Origin: a virus
Lineage: Duplodnaviria; Caudoviricetes
DNA: 64,000 nucleotides
Reading direction: 5' to 3' (one strand)
Virus record (IMG/VR): IMGVR_UViG_3300014208_000023
Span: 320,001 to 384,000 of that record
Positions 12,422 to 52,077 of this stretch are shown one piece after another. The notes under the pieces are model-generated. The model did no database searches. It was not told where the DNA came from and saw only the letters and a list, made by a program, of their open reading frames with translations. Position 1 is the stretch's first letter. The number at the start of each line of letters is the position of its first letter. Made by a program: the position numbers and the translations under genes.

Positions 12422-13591
12422 TCAATTAGTCAAAAATTCAAACGGATCCATAAGCCGTGTATTAGGCTCTTTTGGCGCCAGGCTTATAACATCTTCGGGC
12501 TTTACTCCGGTTGAAATATATTCAATAGGGGTTTTAGTGAAAGACTCGACATACTTCAAAAAGGATCTTGTTTGATTGGCGTCTTTAGAATCTTTCCAGC
12601 AAGGCAAATCAAGATAGGTCGGATTTACATTATTGAAGTCGCTTGGAGAGAATACCTCTTTGCCATATGAGACGCAAGTTTTGATGCTTCTCTGGCCTTC
12701 AGGAATATCCATCTTACATACAATTAGGTGTGTGATTCCGCCTTTTTGAATTCCGTATTTGAGCATTGGCAAGTCGAGATAGCCAATTCTACGAGGCTTT
12801 CCGGTTGTTGCTCCAATCTCTCCGCCAAGCTCTCTCCACTGAATAGCATCTTCCGATGACATTTCAGTTGGCAAAGGGCCTGGGCTTCCAGCCTTGGTTA
12901 CATACGGCTTCATCATTCCATAAACCCTATCCAGCTTAACGAAATTAAAGCCAGAGGCAGCTATGCCTGAAACGGTGCAGTCGCCAGCGGTAACATACGG
13001 GTAAAGCCCAGCATTAATGTCGAGCATTACTCCTTGGCTGCCTTCAAAGAGGAGTCTTGATTTCTCAAATTCTTCTTTCATAGCCAAGACCGTAGTAAAT
13101 GTAACGCCAACCGCCTTTAGCTTTTTGATAACTTCAGCATCATCGTTCATGTAGTTATACACGCGACTACCATTGCGGCTGTATTTACTAACCGCTGCTG
13201 GCCCAACACCTTTGCCAGTAGATCCTACTCCTGTGTTGTGGGCCTTATCAAGATCAATGTGGCCAGAGCTAATAGTAAATGCGTCCATATCCACGTATAT
13301 GGACTCGCCTACTCCTGGAAAATCTTTCTCAAATAAGAGGATTTCGGCCAATAGATTTTCTAGGTTAATATACATTCCCGATGCAAGATAGGATTTTACC
13401 GTCTTACATCTATAATCTGCCGATGGAAGATAATGATGGGTGTATTTCTTGCCATCACGATAGATGACGTGACCACAATTTTCCGAGCCAGCATGACGAA
13501 TAACCCAATCATATTTGGGAGAGAAATGATGGGTGAAATGACCCTTACCATTGTCTCCTAAAAGACAATCTAAAACCGCTATATTTTTCAT
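12422..13591 (-). CDS. purA: adenylosuccinate synthetase
   Basis: GDNGKG P-loop, GSTGKGVGP, EGSQGVMLD, YPYVT, GATTGKPRR. Confidence 0.92.
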   Translation of the reverse strand: MKNIAVLDCLLGDNGKGHFTHHFSPKYDWVIRHAGSENCGHVIYRDGKKYTHHYLPSADYRCKTVKSYLASGMYINLENLLAEILLFEKDFPGVGESIYVDMDAFTISSGHIDLDKAHNTGVGSTGKGVGPAAVSKYSRNGSRVYNYMNDDAEVIKKLKAVGVTFTTVLAMKEEFEKSRLLFEGSQGVMLDINAGLYPYVTAGDCTVSGIAASGFNFVKLDRVYGMMKPYVTKAGSPGPLPTEMSSEDAIQWRELGGEIGATTGKPRRIGYLDLPMLKYGIQKGGITHLIVCKMDIPEGQRSIKTCVSYGKEVFSPSDFNNVNPTYLDLPCWKDSKDANQTRSFLKYVESFTKTPIEYISTGVKPEDVISLAPKEPNTRLMDPFEFLTN

Positions 13592-27885: not shown

Positions 27886-28626
27886 CTACTGTTCTTGATC
27901 CGTAGCACGAGTCTTTTTTAATACCTTGTAAATGCAAGGTATTGATACTTTGTATTTTTCTGCCAAGTCCGTTACTTTAACGCCATTACCGTAATCTTTT
28001 TTTATCTCTACAACGTCATCTTTAGATAACTTAATTCTTTTAAGAACCCACTCCTGCTTATACTCCCTTGCCTGAGCTTTTTCTTTCATTAAAGCTATGG
28101 TCTCTTCGGAGTGTTTCTTGCCGTAGAAGGGATTGTTTTCGCCTCTATTAAAAGCTTTCTTCTTATTGGCGGCAGAAATCTTGGCCTTAGTCTCTTCGGT
28201 GTGATGCTGCCCATAAAATGGATTATCTGCACCAGAGTATTTGCCTTTGTTTAAATCTGATAACTTTTCTTTTGTCTCGGCCGAGTGAGTTCTACCATTA
28301 AATCCCCGTCCTCCAGCCGTTTTATTATATCCACCGTCGCCAAAAGTATTGTAAAACTTAATCCAATACTGTTCGCGTTTGAATCCAAATCTCTTTGGGC
28401 ACTCTTCTAAAACTTCAAAAGTGAAGCTTCCAACTCCAAAATCTAAAATGGCTTGGTGTAGGTCTCTAAAGCTACCATTAGTCATATATAGCGTTTTATT
28501 TTTTGAAATTAGAATATGTTTTTTCCATCTTCTAATTGGTTTGGCGTAGCTTGTCACGCCAATATATGACTTATTGTTCTTTATATTTGTTATCTTATAT
28601 ATAAAAGATGTAGATGATTTCCTCAT
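27886..28626 (-). mobile_element. GIY-YIG homing endonuclease gene with NUMOD3 repeats
   Basis: FIYKITN...YIGVT, RWKKH, YNKTAGG, HSAETKEKLS, HTEETKAKIS, HSEETIALM. Confidence 0.9.
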
Positions 28627-34170: not shown

Positions 34171-35727
34171 TTACGCGCCTTTACAAGCTATTAAAAGCTC
34201 TTTCTTAAGATCAGTGATTAGTGTCTCGTGAAATCTCTTTGAGGCGGCCGGGAATGCTTTCATCCACGAACCGGATTGTAGATTTTTCCAAGACTTTTCC
34301 TTGATCTCTTCTAGATTATTAACTAGATTTTTCAAAATCCAGATATCACAATCTTTGTTTGTTTCAAAAGGCTGATCCGTATTTCCTATTGCTTTGAAAA
34401 TCTCAAGCAAGAAAAACGAGGTAGGCTTATTTGTGGTTGAGTGTGGTCTATCACAATGAGCGAAGAAGTTCAAGGTGTTTTGAAAGGCATACTGCCCTTT
34501 CTTGAGGTCGTTAAAGGCTGGAGCTATCTCCGGCTTTTTACCTTCACTCAACTCTTTGAGATTTTTAGTGTATGCCGCTCTTTTATCAGATATAACCTTC
34601 TCTAGTTTTGAGAGGAAAAATCCTCTACGCTCAAGAAGCTTTTTGTTTTCTTTGCTAAATAGAATCGGATTCCTTCTTTTTTCGATATGCAGAGGGCTAT
34701 CCATGTAGGAAAACTCTCCCTCTCTCAAAAAGGATCTTGAAACTTCATCCAATAGATAATAGTCTCTCGTAACCATGTTTTTCTCTTCGGCAAAACTGGC
34801 AGAATAAACTACCAATCCGCTACGATCGTTCAGCGTTTTGCGAATTGCGGACATGATATCTGCATTATATGCAGGATACATGGTGTCCATATAAAGCGCC
34901 GGGGTGCCTGTGGCCCTATTAACTACCAGTCTAACCATCGACCGGAATATCATTTGCTTTCCGTATGGATGAAAGTCCTGTGTTCCAGATACGAACACAA
35001 CGCCTACATATTTAGAGGAGATAGAGCCGATTAGCCCTCTAGATTGAGCCGCCGTCCATGCCTGACAAGAAATGATTCCTCTCATTGAAGCAGTGGCAAT
35101 GTCCCAAGCGCCCTCTTCGCCAGATGAAGAGAAAGTTAGCTTGTATGCTTTGTTTGGAATATTTAGCTTACTAAACTCTTTGTAATAGTAATCGTTCTCA
35201 TAATTAACTTTAAGTGAGTTGTCTGGCTTAATTTCTGCTAGAACTAAATTAATCTTATTGAGAACTTTAAGAAAAGCCTCTCCCTTTTTAAAGACTGGAG
35301 ATGACGATGCCCCGCTGAAAATATCAGTAGGGATCGACATAACAACCTTATTCTCAACAACGGAGCATAATTCTTTACCTGACAAAGAATAGGTCAGCAT
35401 CGATATGATGTTGATTGCTGACTGAATGGCATTACATTTTTCGTTTCTTTCTTTGCCCGAGTCCAGCATTTCTTTCGCTAGCAAAGTTTTTAACGAAAAC
35501 ACCATCTCATTAAGAATGGAGAGCATTAAGTATACTAGCTGTCTAGCTATGCTTTTGGCTGACTCGGCCGAATATACCGTAATGTCTTCGGTGAAATTAG
35601 GTAGCCCTATGTGTGGGAATACTTTGTCTATTCTCGATAGGTTTTTGAAAACCCTATGTTCTTTGATCCAAGCCGGGAATGGCTTGGTGCTGTTGATAAT
35701 ATAGTTTATTCCTGGCATTTTAATCAC
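34171..35727 (-). CDS. SMRG-xxSC family protein (tandem copy 4 of 4)
   Basis: GAWDIATASMRGIISCQAW...LIGS...MIFRSMVR...MDTMY. Confidence 0.85.
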   Translation of the reverse strand: MIKMPGINYIINSTKPFPAWIKEHRVFKNLSRIDKVFPHIGLPNFTEDITVYSAESAKSIARQLVYLMLSILNEMVFSLKTLLAKEMLDSGKERNEKCNAIQSAINIISMLTYSLSGKELCSVVENKVVMSIPTDIFSGASSSPVFKKGEAFLKVLNKINLVLAEIKPDNSLKVNYENDYYYKEFSKLNIPNKAYKLTFSSSGEEGAWDIATASMRGIISCQAWTAAQSRGLIGSISSKYVGVVFVSGTQDFHPYGKQMIFRSMVRLVVNRATGTPALYMDTMYPAYNADIMSAIRKTLNDRSGLVVYSASFAEEKNMVTRDYYLLDEVSRSFLREGEFSYMDSPLHIEKRRNPILFSKENKKLLERRGFFLSKLEKVISDKRAAYTKNLKELSEGKKPEIAPAFNDLKKGQYAFQNTLNFFAHCDRPHSTTNKPTSFFLLEIFKAIGNTDQPFETNKDCDIWILKNLVNNLEEIKEKSWKNLQSGSWMKAFPAASKRFHETLITDLKKELLIACKGA

Positions 35728-37301
35728 CGATTAAGAATCGAGTAAGAGAGCTCTTTTTTGACGAACTCAACTATCATATCCGATAGGCTCTTGGAGAACG
35801 TGTCGATGCTGTAGTCTCTTGAGCAATGAAGCTTAAGTGCGGCATCGACGCGCGCCTTGCTGTAGAAGATCATATTTTTGCGCTGCAAGAAGCAGGCTTT
35901 TAGGTATTCCTTATTGTAAGAACGAACGCCATAGTGCTCGGTAGTTTTGGGAGCATTAAATCCTGCGAAGATTGCGGCAACTAGAGCGTCCGCAACTACA
36001 CTGAATGGCGCGGAAAGAGTGAAGTTATTCACCATCTTCTTTAGGTCCGAATCCGGCGGAGTAGCAGTATTGTTATACTGAATATCTTCAAACTTGGAAG
36101 AAAGAAAAAGAGAGAAATTGCTCTGAACTCTCTGGGCGTATTTTTCAAGCTCGGTCTGATTGTGAGTCAGTAGGTGCGCATCAAGCTCACACTTGGTGCG
36201 TAGCGCGGTATCCTGATACGATTTTTCACGAGCAGTGATCTTTGTCGTGATCTTTTCATTCGGGATATAGATGTGCCTAGTCTTATTCTGAAGACGAGGG
36301 CCGTAATAAACTGGAAGCTTGCTCTTTTCCGCAAGCGTATCCATGAACGTCTTTACGATCTCATCGTCCTCTGCTGGATACATTTTATCCATAACAAGAC
36401 AAGGAGTATTGGCGTCCTTATCGAAGGCATATCGAACAATGCTTCTACGCATCATCTTCGTGCCTAGACTTCCATGATTCTCAACCGGATCAGCGGCCAC
36501 ACCTGAAGTGAGGTAGATGATTCCAACGAACTTGGAAACAACCGAACCAATAAGACACTTAGGATACTCACCTTCCCAACGCTGGCATGATCGCGTGCCG
36601 CGCATTGACATGGTGATAAGGTCCCAGGCGCCTTCTTCTCCGTCAGAAGAAAAGACGATCTGATATTTCTTATTGGGAATATTTTCCTTGCTAAAAATCT
36701 TGTAGGATTCAATAGCGTCTAGGGCTATGATGGTGTTTTCTGGAACGCCATGCTCAATGCACTTATCTCGAAGCTGCTTATAGAGCCTAAAGATCGGAAT
36801 GCCGGCCTTGTATAGCACCTTGCCGTCTCCACCAATGATATTAGCGTGTAGTCGAAGATCGATCTTTCCGCCGTTTGAGCTTACAACACCATTAGTTGGG
36901 TGGAATGCCGAGGCCGCTCTTGGATCGCAAGTTTCAGCTAGAAATGAAAGCGACTGAACGATCTGCGCAACTTCATTTAGCTTCGCCTTCTTGGCGAGTC
37001 TCTCTTCTAGAGGAGCTAGGAACTGTGTCTTTTGAGACGAAAGGCCAATCTGCTCTTTAGCCCTATTACATTCAGAGCTAACGTCATGCAGAAGGTTCCA
37101 AACGTAACTGCCTTCTTTTTTTACATCAACCATGCATTTTGCAATGTTGGTTTCCTGCTTAAAGTTAGGCATTCCTATCGAGGAGAAAACTTTCGTTATT
37201 CTCGTAGGGGCGGTAAAAAGAGGATGCGCCTTAAGGAATGGCGGCAGAACTTTCCCTTTGAAGATATCCGTCGTGTTGAATACTGTTTTCTTGTCAACCA
37301 T
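35724..37301 (-). CDS. SMRG-xxSC family protein (tandem copy 3 of 4)
   Basis: GAWDLITMSMRGTRSCQRW...LIGS...MMRRSIVR...MDKMY. Confidence 0.85.
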   Translation of the reverse strand: MVDKKTVFNTTDIFKGKVLPPFLKAHPLFTAPTRITKVFSSIGMPNFKQETNIAKCMVDVKKEGSYVWNLLHDVSSECNRAKEQIGLSSQKTQFLAPLEERLAKKAKLNEVAQIVQSLSFLAETCDPRAASAFHPTNGVVSSNGGKIDLRLHANIIGGDGKVLYKAGIPIFRLYKQLRDKCIEHGVPENTIIALDAIESYKIFSKENIPNKKYQIVFSSDGEEGAWDLITMSMRGTRSCQRWEGEYPKCLIGSVVSKFVGIIYLTSGVAADPVENHGSLGTKMMRRSIVRYAFDKDANTPCLVMDKMYPAEDDEIVKTFMDTLAEKSKLPVYYGPRLQNKTRHIYIPNEKITTKITAREKSYQDTALRTKCELDAHLLTHNQTELEKYAQRVQSNFSLFLSSKFEDIQYNNTATPPDSDLKKMVNNFTLSAPFSVVADALVAAIFAGFNAPKTTEHYGVRSYNKEYLKACFLQRKNMIFYSKARVDAALKLHCSRDYSIDTFSKSLSDMIVEFVKKELSYSILNR

Positions 37302-37333
37302 TATCGTTCTCCCAAACTCTCTATGTATGTAAG

Positions 37334-38845
37334 TTAATCACTCGTGCGGGCATTGTCAAGGCGCCTAGCGGCGAAAAGTGCCTTGAGCTCTGCCTTGAGG
37401 GCGGCGTCCGCCCGCTTCATAACCTGTTCCATAATAAGGACAAAATCTCTCTTTGTAAGAGAGGATGTCTTTCTTAAGGCCAGCGCCCCATTCCACTGCG
37501 TTACCTGGCTAGAAATTGATTCTAATAGATAGTTCCTTTTGTGAAAGTAGTTTAGATACAATTTTATTGAGGCTGATAATTTATCAAAATCTCTCTCTTG
37601 AGAAATATCAATATTGCTTATAAGCAAATTACTGAATGTTCTAATTGAATTTTTGATCTGATCTTTGAAAATGAAATTCTTATTCTTGAGGGCAATAAGA
37701 GCATTGATTTTGTCTGAGGAAAATCTACTTAATTCAATTCCGGAAGTAGATGATTCCCTAATCAGAGTAGTAATGAATCTAGCCTTAATTAAAGAGATTT
37801 CTCTTTTTATAGAATCATCATCTAGTTTGGAAGGCTTATCTTTAATCGGATTATTTTGATAAGAGCAAATAGATTCTTCCTCTGGAAGAGGAGTCTGAAA
37901 TATCTCTTTTTCAGAATAGAAATTGAAAGAGTCTTTGATTTTACTTCTTGGTAGAAAATATCGCCCATTAATAATATCCTGTTCTTCATCAGAAGCCAGA
38001 ATCACTTTAAGTCCTGATTTTTCAGTCAGAAACTTTGCGAATAGATCAAAAATTTCAGGAAAGAACTCCGGATAAATATGATCTAGAATAAGAACTGGTT
38101 GTTTTTTTCTTATTGTTTTAGAATTATCTACCGCAAATCGCACTGTTGATCTATAAAGCATCTTTGAGCCATATTCAGTTGGCTTGCCTTTGCTTTCCAG
38201 AAACACTATACCAACATAGGGATCTAGCATAGATCCGATCAGGGATCGCCTATACTCTCCGTTCCAACTTTGGCACGTAGTAATTCCTCGCATGGACATT
38301 GTTGCGATGTCCCAAGGGTCCGTAGAAAAAGAAATTTGGGACGATGATAGAGGGATATTAAGTCGGCTAAAATCCTTGAAAGAATCAAAGGCGAAAAAAT
38401 TAGATACCCCTATCTTTTGCTCGATTGTTTTCTCTAGAAGAGAAAAAAGCGAAGATCCTTTTCTGAAAACTAGATTTCCTGAAGAGTCAGGAATATCTTC
38501 AGATAGGATCGCTGAAATTTTATTGTCTCTTTTTATTTCGATATAATCGGAATAAGAAAATCTATTAAAAAATTCAATTAGAGCCTCAATAACCGAGTTT
38601 GATTCGGTCATTGCTGTCAATTTTCCCTTCAAAAGGACTGATATAATTTCGCTTTCAAAACAAACATCCTTAATAAAACACTCAAGATATTGTTCGCCAA
38701 GTAATGTTATTAGTGGTGCAGAGGAATTATTAAGACCTTTCTTGGGAAAAATCTTATCATAAATAGAAACATCCTTGAAAATAGGGTGTTCAATTATCCA
38801 TTCCGGATACTTCTTATTTTCAAGGATGTTTGAAACGTTATACAT
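37334..38845 (-). CDS. SMRG-xxSC family protein (tandem copy 2 of 4)
   Basis: DPWDIATMSMRGITTCQSW...LIGS...MLYRSTVR...LDHIY. Confidence 0.85.
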   Translation of the reverse strand: MYNVSNILENKKYPEWIIEHPIFKDVSIYDKIFPKKGLNNSSAPLITLLGEQYLECFIKDVCFESEIISVLLKGKLTAMTESNSVIEALIEFFNRFSYSDYIEIKRDNKISAILSEDIPDSSGNLVFRKGSSLFSLLEKTIEQKIGVSNFFAFDSFKDFSRLNIPLSSSQISFSTDPWDIATMSMRGITTCQSWNGEYRRSLIGSMLDPYVGIVFLESKGKPTEYGSKMLYRSTVRFAVDNSKTIRKKQPVLILDHIYPEFFPEIFDLFAKFLTEKSGLKVILASDEEQDIINGRYFLPRSKIKDSFNFYSEKEIFQTPLPEEESICSYQNNPIKDKPSKLDDDSIKREISLIKARFITTLIRESSTSGIELSRFSSDKINALIALKNKNFIFKDQIKNSIRTFSNLLISNIDISQERDFDKLSASIKLYLNYFHKRNYLLESISSQVTQWNGALALRKTSSLTKRDFVLIMEQVMKRADAALKAELKALFAARRLDNARTSD

Positions 38846-40428
38846 TAGGATACTTTTTGTATTAGCTCAATAACGCTATCGTCTGGAAGAGGAAGTGATT
38901 TGCTGCCCTTGATTTTCTCGACCTTACCAACTAGCTTGGCCCGGTCCTTTTCAATTTCTTTTATAAAGGCTTCTTTTATCTTCTGCTTTAGAAGGCCCTT
39001 ATAGGTTGAGGATATTCCTTTTTTTGATCGTTTAGCATAAAGGTCTGTTACTTTTTGAGCAAAAAGCTCTGGAACATTTTCAGCAAAAACACTATCAAAA
39101 ACTTGAAGTGCTACTACTGGAACCTTAACATTCGTATCTTTTACATTACTAACGGCTTCTTCTATTGCTTGTCGTAGCACAAAAGTTGTTTCAGCAACTA
39201 CCGAATATATCGGAGAATCTATGCCTTTATTTGCCGCCCAAGTTGTTCTATCCACCGCATCAGATAGCTCTGATTTCTTAATCTTTCCTGACGCTATTCT
39301 AGCCTTGGCAGAATAGTGCGCTGGGATAAATGAAAGCGTATTTCTTACGCTTTCAAGATAAGAAGCTCTGTTGCTAATTAGTTGCTTGAATTGAATATCA
39401 CTATCTCTGTATGGATGAGCGTTATGCTCCAGCTTTGCCATAATAGGAGTTAATGGAATGTAAGCTTTTGATACGCCATTTCTAAAAATGAGCGAGCAGT
39501 TGGCAATTGGTAACTTGCCACCAGTTTTTTCTTTTAGAATGTTTAGAAACTGTTGTTCAACATCTTTGTTGTGAGCCGGATACATCCTCTCTAGGACTAG
39601 GCTGGGCTTATTGCCCTCATCAATAAGAAAGCGCACAATGCAGCGTCTCATCATCTTTGATCCTTTGCCCTCAAAATCAGAGCCGGTAGTGAGATACATA
39701 ATGGCGGTGAATGGATCTACAATCGATCCAACCAAATGAGTTGAATTTCCCTGTCCCCACGTTTGGCAGGACGAGATTCCTCTCATGCTCATAGTTGCTA
39801 TGTCCCAAGCGCCTTCAATTCCAGAGGATGAGAATACTATTTTTGATTCGCTTCCGGGAATATTTACGGCGTTATATTTTTTGAAAGCTGGAGCCTGATC
39901 TAGAGATCCAAGTGGTAGAAAATGAGCCTCTCTCAATAGCTCGTTTATTTTCTGATAGACCTTAAAAAGTCCTTCTCCACGCTTAAAAACCAGCTTCTTT
40001 TCGTCATCCATTATATCGGCTGACAAGTTAAGCGTTATCTTGTTTGTTTTTTCATTAAGAACAATGAATGACTTATATGACTTTGAAAGAAGCGCCTTGA
40101 ACTGTTTCAAAACATAAGAGCACTTCTTATACTTAACTTTTCTAGCAGGACCAAAAGCTTTAGAGTCGGCTGTCGGTGCCGTCTTAATCTCCGCATAACG
40201 AGTAAGCGAGCTTATTCGGGCATTTACTTCCGTAGAAATAAAGGTAATAACTTCTTCAGCGGCAGAGAGAAGCTCGGAAGAGTTATCTATATTGACTTTT
40301 TGCGTAAAGTTTTCAAGGCCGATTGCTGGGAATACCTTCTTAATTTCTAGGCCTGATGAAAAAATATGATGACTAGTAATAAACGCTGGAAATCTTTTAT
40401 CTGCTTTAATGTCGGCTACTTTAGTCAT
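38845..40428 (-). CDS. SMRG-xxSC family protein (tandem copy 1 of 4)
   Basis: GAWDIATMSMRGISSCQTW...LVGS...MMRRCIVR...LERMY. Confidence 0.85.
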   Translation of the reverse strand: MTKVADIKADKRFPAFITSHHIFSSGLEIKKVFPAIGLENFTQKVNIDNSSELLSAAEEVITFISTEVNARISSLTRYAEIKTAPTADSKAFGPARKVKYKKCSYVLKQFKALLSKSYKSFIVLNEKTNKITLNLSADIMDDEKKLVFKRGEGLFKVYQKINELLREAHFLPLGSLDQAPAFKKYNAVNIPGSESKIVFSSSGIEGAWDIATMSMRGISSCQTWGQGNSTHLVGSIVDPFTAIMYLTTGSDFEGKGSKMMRRCIVRFLIDEGNKPSLVLERMYPAHNKDVEQQFLNILKEKTGGKLPIANCSLIFRNGVSKAYIPLTPIMAKLEHNAHPYRDSDIQFKQLISNRASYLESVRNTLSFIPAHYSAKARIASGKIKKSELSDAVDRTTWAANKGIDSPIYSVVAETTFVLRQAIEEAVSNVKDTNVKVPVVALQVFDSVFAENVPELFAQKVTDLYAKRSKKGISSTYKGLLKQKIKEAFIKEIEKDRAKLVGKVEKIKGSKSLPLPDDSVIELIQKVS

Positions 40429-43770: not shown

Positions 43771-43849
43771 TATTGTAATCCTTATAATAAACGAGTGACT
43801 ATCGGGACGCCTCTCAAGCAACCTAATTAACAATTAATTAGAATCTAAT

Positions 43850-44098
43850 GGTCGCTTCTTTGCAAGAGACCGATACCAATAGATCGTAATCAATCTACTT
43901 TTCCCGAATGGTTGCTATATAGTAACTAGCAGTATTAGGTCGCTCTTTTTGAGTTAGACCCAAACGCTTGTGATTAACCGAGGAGTTTTGCACATGAACA
44001 ATTAGGGACACGTATAAGGTATTAGTTTATACTAGCCTTCCGGCATGCCATAGTGCTGTCTAGTCACTCAAACCTAAACGTAGACACTTCGGCACTAC
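43850..44098 (-). ncRNA. candidate multi-hairpin structured RNA downstream of gltX
   Basis: No ORF; stems at 44050-44098, 43938-43960, 43879-43898 and 43850-43871, with G-U pairs mostly favouring the minus strand. Confidence 0.35.
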
Positions 44099-45546
44099 TT
44101 GTCAAGACCAGTAAGGCGGGACGCGCCTATTTCCAGCCTTTTGATTGACGAGCGGCGGCCGAGGGTCGCCATCACCTGGAATAATTCGGGTGAATGAGAC
44201 CTGCCGGTCAGTGATAGCCGCATGAATCCACCCAGCTCCTTTAGTGATAGGTCGTTTTCGACCAACCAGTTTTTGGTCAATTGCCGAAGATGATCCTCTC
44301 CCCAAGCCGGGTCTGAATCAAGAGCGGTAATTAGTGTGGATACTTTTTCGCGAACCTTCATAGAAACATCCTTGAAATCAGGATTCTCTATCGTGTCAAT
44401 TACGAACGGCATCATTTCGTCTGCCGCCTCAACTAGAGTATGTGCCCTAGCTCTCACCAAAGGCATTGCTGCTCGTAGCTTGGCCGAAGTAAAAGCGTCT
44501 TCTACCAACCCCTTTTTCTTTAGGAAAGGGAGAAGCATTTTCTCATACTCGTCAGTTGATGTAAGAGCCTCACTTTTAAGATGCTCATACTGCACTGAAG
44601 TGAATTTCTTCATGTCGAATTTGCCATCGTTCTTGCCGCAATCTTCAATTGCGAAAAGATCAATCATCTGGTCAAGAGAAAATATCTCTTGATCTTTATG
44701 AGACCATCCAAATCGAACAAGGTAATTAAGAATTGCGTGTGGAGTAAATCCCATCTCTCTAAACTCTGCGACCGACACTGAGCCATCTCGCTTTGAGAGT
44801 TTTCCACCGGCCGCGTTCAGAAGCATTGGGAGGTGACAATATATCGGACGCTCTAGTTTTAGAGCATCAGCAATCATTACCTGTTGCGGAGTATTTTTAA
44901 GATGATCTGACCCGCGGATAACGTGAGTAATATTGTCGATGACAAGATCATCAATGCAATTGGCAAAATTGAATAGCGGGATTTCGCTGTGCCGGAGGAT
45001 AACAAAATCATAGTTCTCCTTATTTGGAACGCTTCTTTTACCAAAAGCAACGTCCTCGTAATCGGTGGTTCCTTCGGTTGGAGCCTTGAATCGGATTACG
45101 AATGGCTTATCTAGGCGCTCTTTAATATCCCTACATGTACCGGGATATTTGAATGGATGCTTTGGATTCTTTGCCATGGCCTCGTCTCTGGCCTTGGTAA
45201 GCTCCTCCTCGGTGCAATAACACCTATAAGCGTCTCCCTGCTCAAGTAGCTGCTCTGCATACTTTTTGTATGTAGGAAGCCGCTCCATTTGCGTATATGC
45301 CCCTGCTGGACAATTATCAGTTCCCCATCCCATTGTAGGAGTGAGTCCAAGCCAGTTTAGCTCTGATAGAATCTTTTCAGCACCCTGATCCACTACTCTT
45401 GCGGTATCAGTATCCTCAATACGAAGGACGAAATCAGCGTCATACTTACGAGAGAATAGGTAGTTGAAAAGAAACGTCTTGGCATTTCCTACGTGAAGGG
45501 TGCCAGAGGGTGATGGGGCGCAACGCACTCGGAATTTTTTCGACAT
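44095..45546 (-). CDS. gltX: glutamyl-tRNA synthetase
   Basis: RCAPSPSGTLHVGN (HIGH), LRIEDTD, YRCYC...YPGTC zinc motif, IRGSDHL, KLSKR (KMSKS), full anticodon-binding domain. Confidence 0.95.
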   Translation of the reverse strand: MSKKFRVRCAPSPSGTLHVGNAKTFLFNYLFSRKYDADFVLRIEDTDTARVVDQGAEKILSELNWLGLTPTMGWGTDNCPAGAYTQMERLPTYKKYAEQLLEQGDAYRCYCTEEELTKARDEAMAKNPKHPFKYPGTCRDIKERLDKPFVIRFKAPTEGTTDYEDVAFGKRSVPNKENYDFVILRHSEIPLFNFANCIDDLVIDNITHVIRGSDHLKNTPQQVMIADALKLERPIYCHLPMLLNAAGGKLSKRDGSVSVAEFREMGFTPHAILNYLVRFGWSHKDQEIFSLDQMIDLFAIEDCGKNDGKFDMKKFTSVQYEHLKSEALTSTDEYEKMLLPFLKKKGLVEDAFTSAKLRAAMPLVRARAHTLVEAADEMMPFVIDTIENPDFKDVSMKVREKVSTLITALDSDPAWGEDHLRQLTKNWLVENDLSLKELGGFMRLSLTGRSHSPELFQVMATLGRRSSIKRLEIGASRLTGLDK

Positions 45547-45547
45547 A

Positions 45548-45814
45548 TCAGGCCTCTGCTACTATTGAGGTGGCAGTATCTTTTTTAGCTGGCGTAACTT
45601 GCTCTTTGCTCTTAATGAACGAACAAATCAAGTCATTATCTGAAGCATTCAACTTCAGGTCAGTAGTTGCTCTAACGATCTTTTTCTCAATCGTGTCAAA
45701 CATAAATTTTCCGGTAGTATCGAAATCAGTTAATGATAACTGAATCAATTCTTTTGTCTTTTGTTTTGCATTCAAAACACAAAGCCCATTGCTTAAAAAG
45801 CATCTTGTTGTCAT
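45548..45814 (-). CDS. hypothetical protein
   Basis: 88-aa ORF abutting gltX. Confidence 0.55.
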   Translation of the reverse strand: MTTRCFLSNGLCVLNAKQKTKELIQLSLTDFDTTGKFMFDTIEKKIVRATTDLKLNASDNDLICSFIKSKEQVTPAKKDTATSIVAEA

Positions 45815-49880: not shown

Positions 49881-49954
49881 TGGTGACCGACCCAGGGCAC
49901 GAATCTGGATTACCTTACCGAAGTAAAGCGTTCTAATCATTAAACTAGTCGGCC
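49881..49954 (-). ncRNA. non-canonical tRNA-Glu-like RNA, copy G (encoded CCA)
   Basis: GGCCGAC UA GUUU AAUGAUUA GAAC G CUUUA CUUCGG UAAGG UAAU CCAGA UUCGUGC CCUGG GUCGGUC A CCA. Confidence 0.85.
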
Positions 49955-49958
49955 GCAG

Positions 49959-50029
49959 TGACCCTCCCAGGGAACGAGCCTGGATTACCTTACCGAAATA
50001 AAGTGTTCTATTCATTAAACTAGAGGGCC
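49959..50029 (-). ncRNA. non-canonical tRNA-Glu-like RNA, copy F (no encoded CCA)
   Basis: GGCCCUC...CUUUA UUUCGG UAAGG UAAU CCAGG CUCGUUC CCUGG GAGGGUC A. Confidence 0.85.
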
Positions 50030-50084
50030 GTAAAGCATACTTGGAACACTAGGTATGCGAGCTAATAAAATCTAAATTGTTCCT

Positions 50085-50158
50085 TGGTGACCTGTCCAGG
50101 GATCGAGTCTGGATTACCTTACCGAAGTAAAGCGTTCTGAACATTAAACTAACAGGCC
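50085..50158 (-). ncRNA. non-canonical tRNA-Glu-like RNA, copy E (encoded CCA)
   Basis: GGCCUGU...CUUUA CUUCGG UAAGG UAAU CCAGA CUCGAUC CCUGG ACAGGUC A CCA. Confidence 0.85.
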
Positions 50159-50167
50159 GTAACTGAA

Positions 50168-50407
50168 TTATGAATCTTTACCCCACGCCCAAATAGCCCT
50201 AACATACATTACCATTATGAAAATGGACATAACAACCAATGCCATAGAGTGGGTCATTAGTCCCCACGCTACCCACATTGATTCTGCAATCAATGCGATA
50301 TAGAAACCAACCTTCTTTTTATCTCCAATTAAAGAGAGTGCGATAAGTAGAAGTATGCAGCCGCCCCAAGAAAGAATGTTTGGAACGGTGAAAATTGAAT
50401 TAAACAT
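50168..50407 (-). CDS. small PnuC-like membrane protein
   Basis: Three hydrophobic helices, K-x-x-G-F/W and AIWAW ending typical of phage PnuC-like half proteins. Confidence 0.55.
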   Translation of the reverse strand: MFNSIFTVPNILSWGGCILLLIALSLIGDKKKVGFYIALIAESMWVAWGLMTHSMALVVMSIFIMVMYVRAIWAWGKDS

Positions 50408-50430
50408 ATTTGCCTTTAACTAATTGTTAG

Positions 50431-50503
50431 TTGGGGATATAGGACTCGAACCTATAACTCGCGGATTCAAAGCCCGCTACTCTGCCAGTTGAGTTAATCC
50501 CCA
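50431..50503 (-). tRNA. tRNA-Gln(UUG)
   Basis: Canonical cloverleaf UGGGGAU/AUCCCCA, D-loop GG, loop CU-UUG-AA, GUUCGA T-loop; CCA not encoded. Confidence 0.9.
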
Positions 50504-50596
50504 ATAAGAGGAAATGCATCACTTAGTGATTGAGGATTTGATCCCTTAACAATTCCAATGCTACATTTTTATAGGTTTATATAGCGAACCATTTGT

Positions 50597-50815
50597 GTGC
50601 AAATCGGTTTTGGAGGCCGATCTGCACTTTTTACTGGTTTTGCAGGCCAACCAGCCAACCTAGATCGGGCTCCACTACTTTATCGCTCTGGTCCTTTTTG
50701 GTAGAGTTTAGGTGCTTCATTGCCCTCTTTGTTTGTATTCCGAACCAGAGAAGCAGGCCTCCAAAAACGGACATCTGCCTTACGCTTTGAGTCCGCCCGT
50801 TGGAGCGTAAAAACA
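50597..50815 (-). ncRNA. candidate ~220-nt multibranch structured RNA
   Basis: Long-range helix 50756-50769/50605-50618, stems 50742-50750/50686-50694 and 50662-50668/50617-50623, and 5' hairpin UUACGCU/AGCGUAA. Confidence 0.5.
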
Positions 50816-50818
50816 TAG

Positions 50819-50889
50819 TGACCTGTCCAGGGAACGAGCCTGGATTTCCTTACCGAAATAAAGCGTTCTGATCATTAAACTAACAGGCC
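50819..50889 (-). ncRNA. non-canonical tRNA-Glu-like RNA, copy D (no encoded CCA)
   Basis: GGCCUGU...CUUUA UUUCGG UAAGG AAAU CCAGG CUCGUUC CCUGG ACAGGUC A. Confidence 0.85.
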
Positions 50890-50896
50890 TAAATTG

Positions 50897-51082
50897 TTAT
50901 CCGATAACCACGTACTCTTTGCCATTAGCAATTTCTTCACAAGTCCCGCCCTTGGTGTAAGGGTTTCCCATTGGTGTCACTCCGGTGCATATGGATGCGT
51001 CTTCGGAATCTGCCGAATACGTGATGACTAGTGCGTCTTGGTTACACTTCAAGAGCTTTGCAACAATTTCTGATACTTTCAT
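50897..51082 (-). CDS. small hypothetical protein
   Basis: MKVSEIVAKLL...; lies between RNA copies C and D. Confidence 0.6.
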   Translation of the reverse strand: MKVSEIVAKLLKCNQDALVITYSADSEDASICTGVTPMGNPYTKGGTCEEIANGKEYVVIG

Positions 51083-51115
51083 TTTTTTTCTTTTCTTTCA
51101 TTTTAGTAGCGTTAG

Positions 51116-51186
51116 TGATCCTCCCAGGGAATGAGCCTGGATTACCTTACCGAAATAAAGTGTTCTATTCATTAAACTAGAGGACC
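51116..51186 (-). ncRNA. non-canonical tRNA-Glu-like RNA, copy C (no encoded CCA)
   Basis: GGUCCUC...CUUUA UUUCGG UAAGG UAAU CCAGG CUCAUUC CCUGG GAGGAUC A. Confidence 0.85.
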
Positions 51187-51491
51187 TAAAGATTTATTTC
51201 CTCAATGATGGTGAGGTTGTTATTTTCTTTTTTATAGAGAAGAAGGCTGTTAGCATTGATTTTTTCATTAAGAAAAAGAAGCTTAATTTTCTCACATGTA
51301 AGCTTGAATTTCAAAATTAAGAAATATTCATTTGCAAGAATGTTAATGTTATTTTCTTGCAACAGTCTTTCTAAGTCAAGATTATTGTTTTGGCGAGTGT
51401 CAGTTGTTAGGGAAGATTTGTAACGACTTATAAAGTCGCGCGCGGCTTCTAACGTGTATTCTCCAGTGAAAAATGGTCTATATAAAATCAT
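51186..51491 (-). CDS. AT-rich hypothetical protein
   Basis: 101-aa ORF exactly filling the gap between RNA copies B and C. Confidence 0.55.
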   Translation of the reverse strand: MILYRPFFTGEYTLEAARDFISRYKSSLTTDTRQNNNLDLERLLQENNINILANEYFLILKFKLTCEKIKLLFLNEKINANSLLLYKKENNNLTIIEEINL

Positions 51492-51499
51492 GTTTTTAG

Positions 51500-51569
51500 T
51501 GACCCGTCCAGGGATCGAATCTGGATTACCTTACCGAAGTAAAGTGTTCTGGCATTAAACTAACGGGCC
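51500..51569 (-). ncRNA. non-canonical tRNA-Glu-like RNA, copy B (no encoded CCA)
   Basis: GGCCCGU UA GUUU AAUGCCA GAAC A CUUUA CUUCGG UAAGG UAAU CCAGA UUCGAUC CCUGG ACGGGUC A. Confidence 0.85.
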
Positions 51570-51573
51570 GTAA

Positions 51574-51894
51574 TTATATCTTAAATTCTTTTACTATTTC
51601 AACTTCTAGGCCACCAAAAGGAATGCGTTTGGTACGGACGATATATATCGTATCTCCCGTAATCGATTGTGCGCGGGCCAGTCTATCTAAAGCGTCACAC
51701 TTTGCCGTAGCTCTAACTATGAAGCCATAGCCAAGTGCTCCTATAGATTTAGTTGAATTAATGATTTCAGTCATAGAGGTCGCGTTGGATAACGCTGGCG
51801 CTATATTAAAATAGCCCCTATTCTTCCTTATCCAAGATTCGGCGGCTTCTAGCGTTTTTAGTGACGATAAACTATAACTGGCATATATAAACAT
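51574..51894 (-). CDS. hypothetical protein
   Basis: 106-aa ORF whose ATG directly follows the CCA of RNA copy A. Confidence 0.6.
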   Translation of the reverse strand: MFIYASYSLSSLKTLEAAESWIRKNRGYFNIAPALSNATSMTEIINSTKSIGALGYGFIVRATAKCDALDRLARAQSITGDTIYIVRTKRIPFGGLEVEIVKEFKI

Positions 51895-51967
51895 TGGTGA
51901 CCTGTCTAGGGATCGAATCTAGATTTCCCTACCGAAGTAGAGCGTTTTGGCATTAAACTAACAGGCC
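51895..51967 (-). ncRNA. non-canonical tRNA-Glu-like RNA, copy A (encoded CCA)
   Basis: GGCCUGU UA GUUU AAUGCCA AAAC G CUCUA CUUCGG UAGGG AAAU CUAGA UUCGAUC CCUAG ACAGGUC A CCA; compensatory changes in the AC and T stems. Confidence 0.85.
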
Positions 51968-51972
51968 AATAG

Positions 51973-52070
51973 CGGCGAGGATGAGGAATCGAACCTTATC
52001 TACAATGTAGAGCGAACTGCTTTTTGCTTCATATCTTCATTGATCCTGGCTCCATACGAAGCTTCTCGCC
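51973..52070 (-). ncRNA. 98-nt tRNA-like element with no recognisable anticodon arm
   Basis: GGCGAG/CUCGCC acceptor, GCUUC-GUAU-GGAGC hairpin, GGUUCGAUUCC T-arm, discriminator G. Confidence 0.5.
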
Positions 52071-52077
52071 AAAGTCA

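Follow-up and report, generated by a model that had tools for sequence, protein, structure and literature searches.

This study concerns a phage-encoded glutamyl-tRNA synthetase (GluRS) gene, gltX, and the tRNA-Glu-shaped RNAs encoded near it. Both lie in a 64,000-nucleotide (nt) stretch of DNA, here called the window, which comprises bases 320001 to 384000 of the virus record IMGVR_UViG_3300014208_000023. The record (genome G000) is 428,320 bp long, carries direct terminal repeats and is estimated to be 100% complete, and its phage identity is supported by PHROG matches, including a phage helicase and an ATP-dependent protease. The gltX gene occupies positions 44095 to 45546 of the minus strand as an ATG-to-stop open reading frame (ORF) for a 483-residue bacterial-type GluRS (P0001). 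An array of seven tRNA-Glu-shaped RNAs (49881-51967, minus strand; repeat family D1), which match RF00005 weakly and are interleaved with small ORFs, lies 4,335 nt upstream of the gltX start; a preliminary description of this DNA had put the two about 4.3 kb apart on a shared strand, and both are indeed on the minus strand. Inside the array sits tRNA-Gln(UUG) (50430-50503, minus strand), found by ARAGORN and matching Rfam RF00005 at 63.2 bits. It is the only canonical tRNA of the window.

The gltX product is a complete member of the bacterial GluRS family. It scored 426.5 bits against the NCBIfam equivalog TIGR00464 (gltX_bact; cut-off 289.95), and Pfam placed a catalytic domain (tRNA-synt_1c, PF00749; 284 bits) at residues 5 to 315 and an anticodon-binding domain (Anticodon_2, PF19269; 75.8 bits) at residues 336 to 473. 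Models for GluQRS, archaeal GluRS and GlnRS all fell under their own cut-offs. GluQRS (YadB), the truncated enzyme that glutamylates the queuosine of tRNA-Asp, has a homologous catalytic domain but lacks the anticodon-binding domain; this identity was excluded on the strength of the full anticodon-binding domain and a score of 199.6 bits, against a cut-off of 250, for the best GluQRS model. The HIGH-type motif H18-V-G-N21 (45484-45495, minus strand) aligns to the HVGG or HIGG of solved GluRS, the KMSKS-type loop K249-L-S-K-R253 (44788-44802, minus strand) was assigned by alignment to 8i9i_A, and the putative zinc-binding segment C109-x-C111...C138-x-D140 (45127-45222, minus strand) lies opposite C98, C100, C125 and H127 of the Escherichia coli enzyme; a CxC...CxH segment of this kind occurs in many GluRS but not in all. 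Among 37 members of the phage clade described below, H18, G20, the K249-L-S-K-R253 loop, the three zinc cysteines, R365/R367, R443, G448 and P453 show little or no variation. The cysteines are present in 37/37, and the fourth ligand position is variable (D/N/S/T), with D140 here in place of E. coli H127. S251 aligns to E. coli S239, the HipA phosphorylation site, and is serine in 35 of the 37. The preliminary description had reported an intact, full-length gltX with HVGN, KLSKR, a zinc motif and an RAR-containing anticodon domain, all of which Pfam, TIGR00464 and the alignments bear out, and had noted that the KLSKR serine is retained, as the position of S251 confirms. The asparagine that ends the HIGH motif (residue 21, 45484-45486) is a signature of the phage clade: 34/37 members read H-[ILV]-G-N, and Polyangia and Proteobacteria have glycine.

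An AlphaFold2 model built with 30 relatives (pLDDT 91.3, pTM 0.88) predicts the canonical full-length GluRS fold, with ten helices between residues 331 and 480; the preliminary description had named structure prediction of the anticodon domain as a way to judge its proposal. Full-length TM scores by model were 0.84 to E. coli 8I9I, 0.82 to Thermus thermophilus 1J09 and 0.85 to Thermotoga maritima 2O5R, spanning 0.80 to 0.86 for monomeric GluRS structures, whereas the arched dimeric Pseudomonas aeruginosa type did not fit (~0.6). For the E. coli and S. maltophilia enzymes the scores were 0.84 by model and 0.86 to 0.88 by target. The protein resembles the T. thermophilus (1J09/1N78) and E. coli (8I9I) enzymes in its five-domain monomeric fold (TM by model 0.82-0.84), its HIGH and KMSKS-type motifs, its putative zinc cysteines and its arginine at the nucleotide-36 site, but is ~34% identical to them and differs by the HxGN motif and by Asp rather than His at the fourth zinc position.

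At its 5′ side, gltX adjoins an 88-residue ORF whose TGA (45548-45550) ends one base before the gltX ATG (junction 45547-45565, minus strand). A Shine–Dalgarno-like AGAGG lies ~8 nt upstream of the ATG, and gltX is putatively translationally coupled to this ORF. After gltX comes a 260-nt noncoding gap (43834-44094, minus strand), with counterparts in contigs L137 (2143-2453) and L134 (11435-11722) and also in L135; the gaps in the window, L137 and L134, of 260 to 310 nt, are partly conserved in sequence. The window gap has no Rfam match and a mild folding z-score (−2.1), and it may hold a terminator, a promoter or a small RNA.

The preliminary description had proposed that this GluRS may be a dedicated, anticodon-tolerant charging enzyme for the RNAs of the array, and the anticodon-binding domain bears directly on that proposal. 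This helical domain (residues 336-473; 44128-44541, minus strand) contains R365-A366-R367 (44446-44454, minus strand) opposite R356-P357-R358 of T. thermophilus. R367 aligns to R358, which binds nucleotide 36 (PMC12088422), and is Arg in 34 of the 37 clade members and Lys in three. R367 is a pointer to, not proof of, a discriminating-type GluRS, for the rule that an arginine marks discriminating enzymes differs by phylum (PMC3927822). The LR-x-x-LTG...SP segment of domain V is intact. Dividing the identity of the anticodon-binding domain by that of the catalytic domain gives 0.68 for the phage clade, 0.68 for Polyangia and 0.52 for Proteobacteria. On these alignments the domain is as conserved as in bacteria, with no sign of relaxation or remodeling. 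Anticodon tolerance is therefore unsupported, because the domain ratio equals that of Polyangia, R367 is kept and the domain is under purifying selection (below); that the phage has its own tRNA-Glu(UUC), and that relatives carry gltX without the array RNAs, speaks further against a dedicated, tolerant enzyme.

Relatives of the protein form a deep lineage. A search of 5.8 billion proteins returned a graded series from 85% to ~47% identity, many on contigs of 80 to 430 kb, followed by Myxococcota enzymes (Polyangiaceae, Pendulispora) at 45 to 48%. Among species genomes, Labilithrix and Polyangiaceae were the nearest cellular sources (43-46%), then Proteobacteria (35-39%). A single-sequence pattern scan of IMG/VR gave no gltX match, so that an alignment-based query was needed to find relatives, and megablast found no match to the locus among GenBank phages. 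When 81 sequences were placed in a maximum-likelihood tree, the window GluRS fell within a clade of 37 to 39 metagenomic sequences (supports 92-98) that is sister to a Polyangia clade, with a support of 100 for the joint group versus other bacteria; phylogeny, another check suggested in the preliminary description, thus yields a deep metagenomic clade beside the Polyangia GluRS. The viral GluRS of L008, L017, L018 and L024 fall elsewhere in the tree and by that placement appear to be separate acquisitions. Six sampled clade members lie on phage-like contigs and share the gene order gltX, small genes, 5′-3′ exonuclease and ~500-residue paralogs, an order kept down to 48% identity. The seventh, L142, has the upstream aminotransferase and phosphoesterase genes alone in common. 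Compared with the closest relative (L137, 85% identical protein), pS is 0.74 (saturated) and pN is 0.10 for the whole protein (catalytic domain, 0.05; anticodon-binding domain, 0.19), giving dN/dS of at most ~0.04 overall and at most ~0.09 in the anticodon-binding domain. Because synonymous sites are saturated against a low pN, the clade is deep and synteny is kept, we regard gltX as an old, vertically inherited gene that is evidently under strong purifying selection.

GluRS is the sole aminoacyl-tRNA synthetase (aaRS) found in the complete 428-kb genome. A PF00749 search of G000 returned gltX as its single match, and searches for nine other aaRS catalytic families (PF00133, PF09334, PF00579, PF00750, PF01406, PF00587, PF00152, PF01409 and PF01411), each with a working positive control, found none there. 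ARAGORN identified 14 canonical tRNAs in the whole genome, nine of which read A-ending codons. They include tRNA-Glu(UUC) at 28189-28264 of G000, outside the window. The statement in the preliminary description that no canonical tRNA-Glu is present therefore stands for the window, where tRNA-Gln(UUG) is alone, and fails for the genome. GAA is among the commonest codons, at 37.9 per 1000 codons (GAG, 22.2). As for enzymes that might consume Glu-tRNA, glutamyl-tRNA reductase (GluTR/HemA, PF05201) is absent from the complete genome in searches whose controls worked, and a GluTR-linked pathway was rejected on this basis. GatB (PF02934) is likewise absent from complete G000. Searches of G000 for the LanB families PF04738 and PF14028 were empty, but their positive controls were also silent, which makes this a weak negative. 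The earlier remark that the window shows neither HemA nor LanB can thus be extended to the whole genome for HemA, and for LanB agrees with searches that had no working control. None of the 10 ORFs neighboring gltX belongs to a Pfam family of a Glu-tRNA-consuming type, and three neighboring ORFs searched in Atlas matched phage hypothetical proteins only.

The RNAs of the array are cloverleaves whose anticodon arm consists of a 6-bp stem under a UUCG cap, and we refer to them as sealed-anticodon look-alikes. An eighth lies at 386817-386890 of G000, and the full set analyzed comprises 17 copies from seven sources (G000, L134, L136, L139, L199, L200 and G001). G1-C72 and G2.U71 are fixed in 17/17 copies, and the rest of the acceptor stem, the five pairs from 3-70 to 7-66, shows compensatory variation. 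At N73, 14 copies have A and three have G. The D stem keeps U11-A24 and U13.G22 (one copy has A22), the variable loop is 4 nt, N-A-A-U, in all copies, and the anticodon stem covaries freely beneath the invariant UUCG. The acceptor end G1-C72/G2.U71/A73 is identical in the phage tRNA-Glu(UUC). Among 447 distinct tRNAs from the collected loci, it occurs in 11/52 tRNA-Glu, 0/47 tRNA-Arg and one of ~370 others. We used this count in place of a similarity ranking of look-alikes against tRNA isotypes, which was discarded: Arg, Thr, Pro and Glu all came near the top, and the ranking was biased by locus selection. The look-alike of G001 has a classic tRNA-Glu D-arm and a 7-bp anticodon stem, and the canonical viral tRNA-Glu(UUC) of L150 and L194 have the same GUUU...GAAC D-arm together with a U-UUC-G anticodon loop. 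The sealed form would be derivable from a tRNA-Glu of the L150/L194 type by loss of one loop base. Judged by their acceptor signature, D-arm pairs and Glu-type relatives, the look-alikes are tRNA-Glu-like in sequence, as the preliminary description had called them. Outside the anticodon, the elements that give E. coli tRNA-Glu its identity are reportedly (Sekine et al., 1996) pairs 1-72 and 2-71, U11-A24, U13.G22..A46 and the lack of nucleotide 47. The E. coli tRNA has U2-A71, versus G2.U71 in the look-alikes. Because the fixed positions of the look-alikes match these identity positions, binding by GluRS is plausible.

Several look-alikes depart from the tRNA pattern elsewhere. T-loop position 54 is C rather than U/T in 13 of 17 (CUCGNUC or CUCAUAC), for example at 50816-50889 and 51113-51186 and in L134, L136 and L139, and four of the eight G000 copies have an A53.C61 mismatch instead. 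In five of the eight the 3′ end is CTA or CTG, not CCA; such copies would have to be trimmed at the 3′ end and given a CCA, and their elbow may be altered. Just upstream of copy 7 is a tRNA-like piece of ~100 nt (51970-52072, minus strand), which was missed by ARAGORN and Rfam and has a folding z-score of only −1.1. Its 7-bp stem (GGCGAGG/CCUCGCC) is of the acceptor type, its middle is remodeled, and a hairpin that resembles a T-arm bears the loop UUCGAUU. A further aberrant tRNA, L038 (G003:C1:119581-119653), from another huge phage, combines the GUUU...GAAC D-arm with an 8-nt anticodon loop and a noncanonical T-loop, CCCGUAC.

Look-alikes accompany gltX in part of its lineage. Besides the present genome (seven copies nearby, 4.3 kb upstream of gltX, and eight in total), they occur in L134 (GluRS 75% identical to that of the window; three copies, 2.1-5.2 kb upstream), L136 (75%; at least two, 4.5 kb), L139 (54%; one, 9.9 kb) and G001 (58%; one, 15.6 kb). 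In all five contigs they lie upstream of gltX on the strand that it occupies, and in L134 the tRNA-Gln(UUG) is again inside the array. No look-alike was found within 10 kb of gltX in L140 (53%), L141 (48%), L142 (47%) or L002 (44%), or anywhere in G003, G004 and G005, gltX-bearing genomes of related huge phages (97-100% complete). The GluRS of G003 and G004 are 39 to 40% identical and belong to a neighboring clade, and that of G005 is a separate acquisition; all three genomes carry canonical tRNA-Glu(UUC) and several other aaRS. The look-alike contigs with usable flanks were all reached through gltX, an ascertainment bias, and those found independently are at most 3 kb long. A scan of a single metagenome yielded three further copies on contigs of at most 3 kb, and a pattern scan of IMG/VR with the core of the look-alikes yielded 55 loci, every one an ordinary tRNA (the best, at 58 bits, a tRNA-Arg(UCG)). 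By this distribution gltX appears older and more widespread than the look-alikes. The preliminary description had expected gene and array to co-occur in related phages; gltX without look-alikes in G003 to G005 shows otherwise and therefore argues against a dedicated pair.

Taken together, these data indicate that the gene most likely encodes an ordinary, catalytically competent, discriminating-type bacterial GluRS, long inherited in a huge-phage lineage, which probably makes Glu-tRNA-Glu for translation during infection. We infer its activity, its substrates and the reason for its retention from the features above. The substrates would be the phage tRNA-Glu(UUC), reader of the abundant GAA codon, and presumably the host tRNA-Glu; the enzyme could keep glutamate charging and phage protein synthesis going when host GluRS runs short or has been shut off or inactivated. 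For the aaRS already described from huge phages, GluRS among them, the charging of tRNA variants of the phage has been proposed as a role (PMC7162821), and a phage-encoded GluRS is a known kind of protein, of which the present one is a member of a distinct, deep clade. Like the enzymes of the GluRS subtree in Extended Data Fig. 7 of Al-Shayeb et al. (2020; PMC7162821), it is a full-length bacterial-type GluRS from a phage genome of more than 200 kb with phage tRNAs, related to but distinct from cellular enzymes. Unlike those, which group with Bacteroidetes hosts and come from a kind of genome that can have up to 15 aaRS, it is part of a separate deep clade beside the Polyangia (Myxococcota) enzymes, is the sole aaRS of its genome and is syntenic with the sealed-anticodon look-alikes. 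The Polyangia and Labilithrix enzymes, its nearest cellular relatives (43-46%), are products of housekeeping genes, and the U2-A71 and G73 of Polyangia tRNA-Glu(UUC) stand against G2.U71 and A73 in the tRNA-Glu of the phage and in most look-alikes.

Three observations weigh against this ordinary role. The glutamate content of 6.0% is unremarkable. With GluRS as the only aaRS, a general role as a booster of translation leaves glutamate-only charging unexplained. Finally, G001 (406 kb, 95% complete) has gltX and one look-alike, and its canonical tRNAs are tRNA-Ile(UAU) and tRNA-Lys(UUU) only; with no detectable canonical tRNA-Glu in G001, the GluRS there would have to act on host tRNA-Glu or on the single look-alike.

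The alternative that survives best, although we consider it rather unlikely, is that the phage GluRS also or mainly recognizes the look-alikes, either glutamylating them as nonribosomal glutamate donors or using them as cofactors, regulators or decoys. GluRS activates glutamate only with tRNA bound. The pattern of what is fixed (G1-C72, G2.U71, U11-A24, U13.G22, the N-A-A-U loop and UUCG) and what is free (pairs 3-70 to 7-66 and, through covariation, the anticodon stem) is in keeping with recognition, since the acceptor signature is common to the phage tRNA-Glu and almost Glu-specific in the tRNA sample and the fixed positions coincide with the E. coli identity positions outside the anticodon. 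So are the placement upstream of gltX on one strand in five contigs and the combination, in G001, of gltX and a look-alike with a classic tRNA-Glu D-arm in a genome that lacks canonical tRNA-Glu. Proximity may, however, reflect inherited gene order in a syntenic, unidirectional region, and it was observed in contigs whose flanks were found through gltX. Moreover, gltX is older and wider in distribution, the anticodon-binding domain is neither relaxed nor remodeled and keeps its nucleotide-36 arginine, and the UUC bases are masked by a highly stable C(UUCG)G cap. GluTR is absent, the LanB searches were empty (without a control), and neither Pfam nor Atlas gave a family for the neighboring ORFs.

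HemA and LanB-type pathways would be the model for look-alikes that are charged and then serve outside the ribosome, but no aminoacyl-tRNA transferase was recognized among the neighbors of gltX. A further precedent is the staphylococcal cell-wall tRNA-Gly, a dedicated nondecoding tRNA. Known donor tRNAs, this one included, keep a normal anticodon loop, whereas the look-alikes have a UUCG-sealed stem. A dedicated synthetase/donor-tRNA pair is not supported, as no consumer enzyme was found (for LanB in searches without a working control), co-occurrence is not strict and the anticodon-binding domain is canonical. We regard it as quite unlikely that GluRS and the look-alikes form a functional pair in this lineage, with recognition through G1-C72/G2.U71 and the augmented D-helix and with the RNAs serving as glutamate donors or as regulators or decoys of charging.

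An improbable alternative, drawn by analogy, is counter-defense: the phage enzyme would replace a host GltX inactivated by a HipA-type kinase or an abortive-infection toxin, or would keep tRNA-Glu charged and so avert the stringent response. HipA phosphorylates GltX at Ser239, thereby blocking tRNA-Glu charging, and Hip kinases have been proposed as abortive-infection effectors (PMC8262856). That GluRS is the sole aaRS of G000, and that none of three further aaRS families was found in G001, would fit a specific vulnerability, an attractive reason, rather than a need for general capacity. Yet the target serine is kept in 35 of the 37 clade members, with no obvious escape substitution.

We think it very improbable that the enzyme is a nondiscriminating GluRS that charges the phage tRNA-Gln(UUG) with glutamate for conversion by a host amidotransferase. 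The tRNA-Gln(UUG) is found inside the look-alike array upstream of gltX in both the window and L134, but R367 occupies the discriminating-marker position (under the phylum-dependent rule of PMC3927822) and the phage lacks GatB. Almost no credence can be given to the idea that gltX was taken from a host recently and is a passenger without function, for the clade is deep, synteny is kept, synonymous sites are saturated against a low pN and the nearest cellular homologs are only 43 to 46% identical.

The wider neighborhood of gltX differs among clade members. Distant members have a class I/II aminotransferase gene (PF00155) upstream of gltX (L139 8205-9206, L140 8222-9989, L141 8274-10000 and L142 6917-9488), and in L140, L141 and L142 a Metallophos phosphoesterase gene lies between it and gltX, with an M50 peptidase gene further upstream. 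The window has unrelated ORFs where the distant members have these genes; a 340-residue ORF upstream of gltX was considered as a diverged aminotransferase and rejected, having no similarity (E 2.4). Downstream of gltX are four tandem ~500-residue paralogs (34171-40428, minus strand), whose position is kept in L134, L136 and L139 to L141; neither Pfam nor PHROG gives a family for them, and in Atlas they match viral hypothetical clusters only (score 0.93). Elsewhere in the window, a 389-residue ORF (12422-13591, minus strand) matches phrog_1211, a PurZ-type adenylosuccinate synthetase relative (E 3e-63), and may belong to a 2-aminoadenine (Z-base) DNA pathway or be simply a PurA-like auxiliary gene.

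Taken alone, gltX is one more well-preserved phage-encoded synthetase, of a class described in 2020. As the sole synthetase of its lineage, it makes glutamate charging seem a specific pressure point in infection. The deep phage-associated clade, sister to Polyangia, may be a clue to the host range or to a gene transfer long ago. In acceptor stem and D-arm, the neighboring nondecoding RNAs have the features that a GluRS ligand would be expected to show. A functional pairing of enzyme and look-alikes, if true, would explain why GluRS is the only synthetase of the lineage and why G001 has gltX and a look-alike in the absence of tRNA-Glu, and charging of the look-alikes, if it occurs, could open a new kind of phage tRNA biology.

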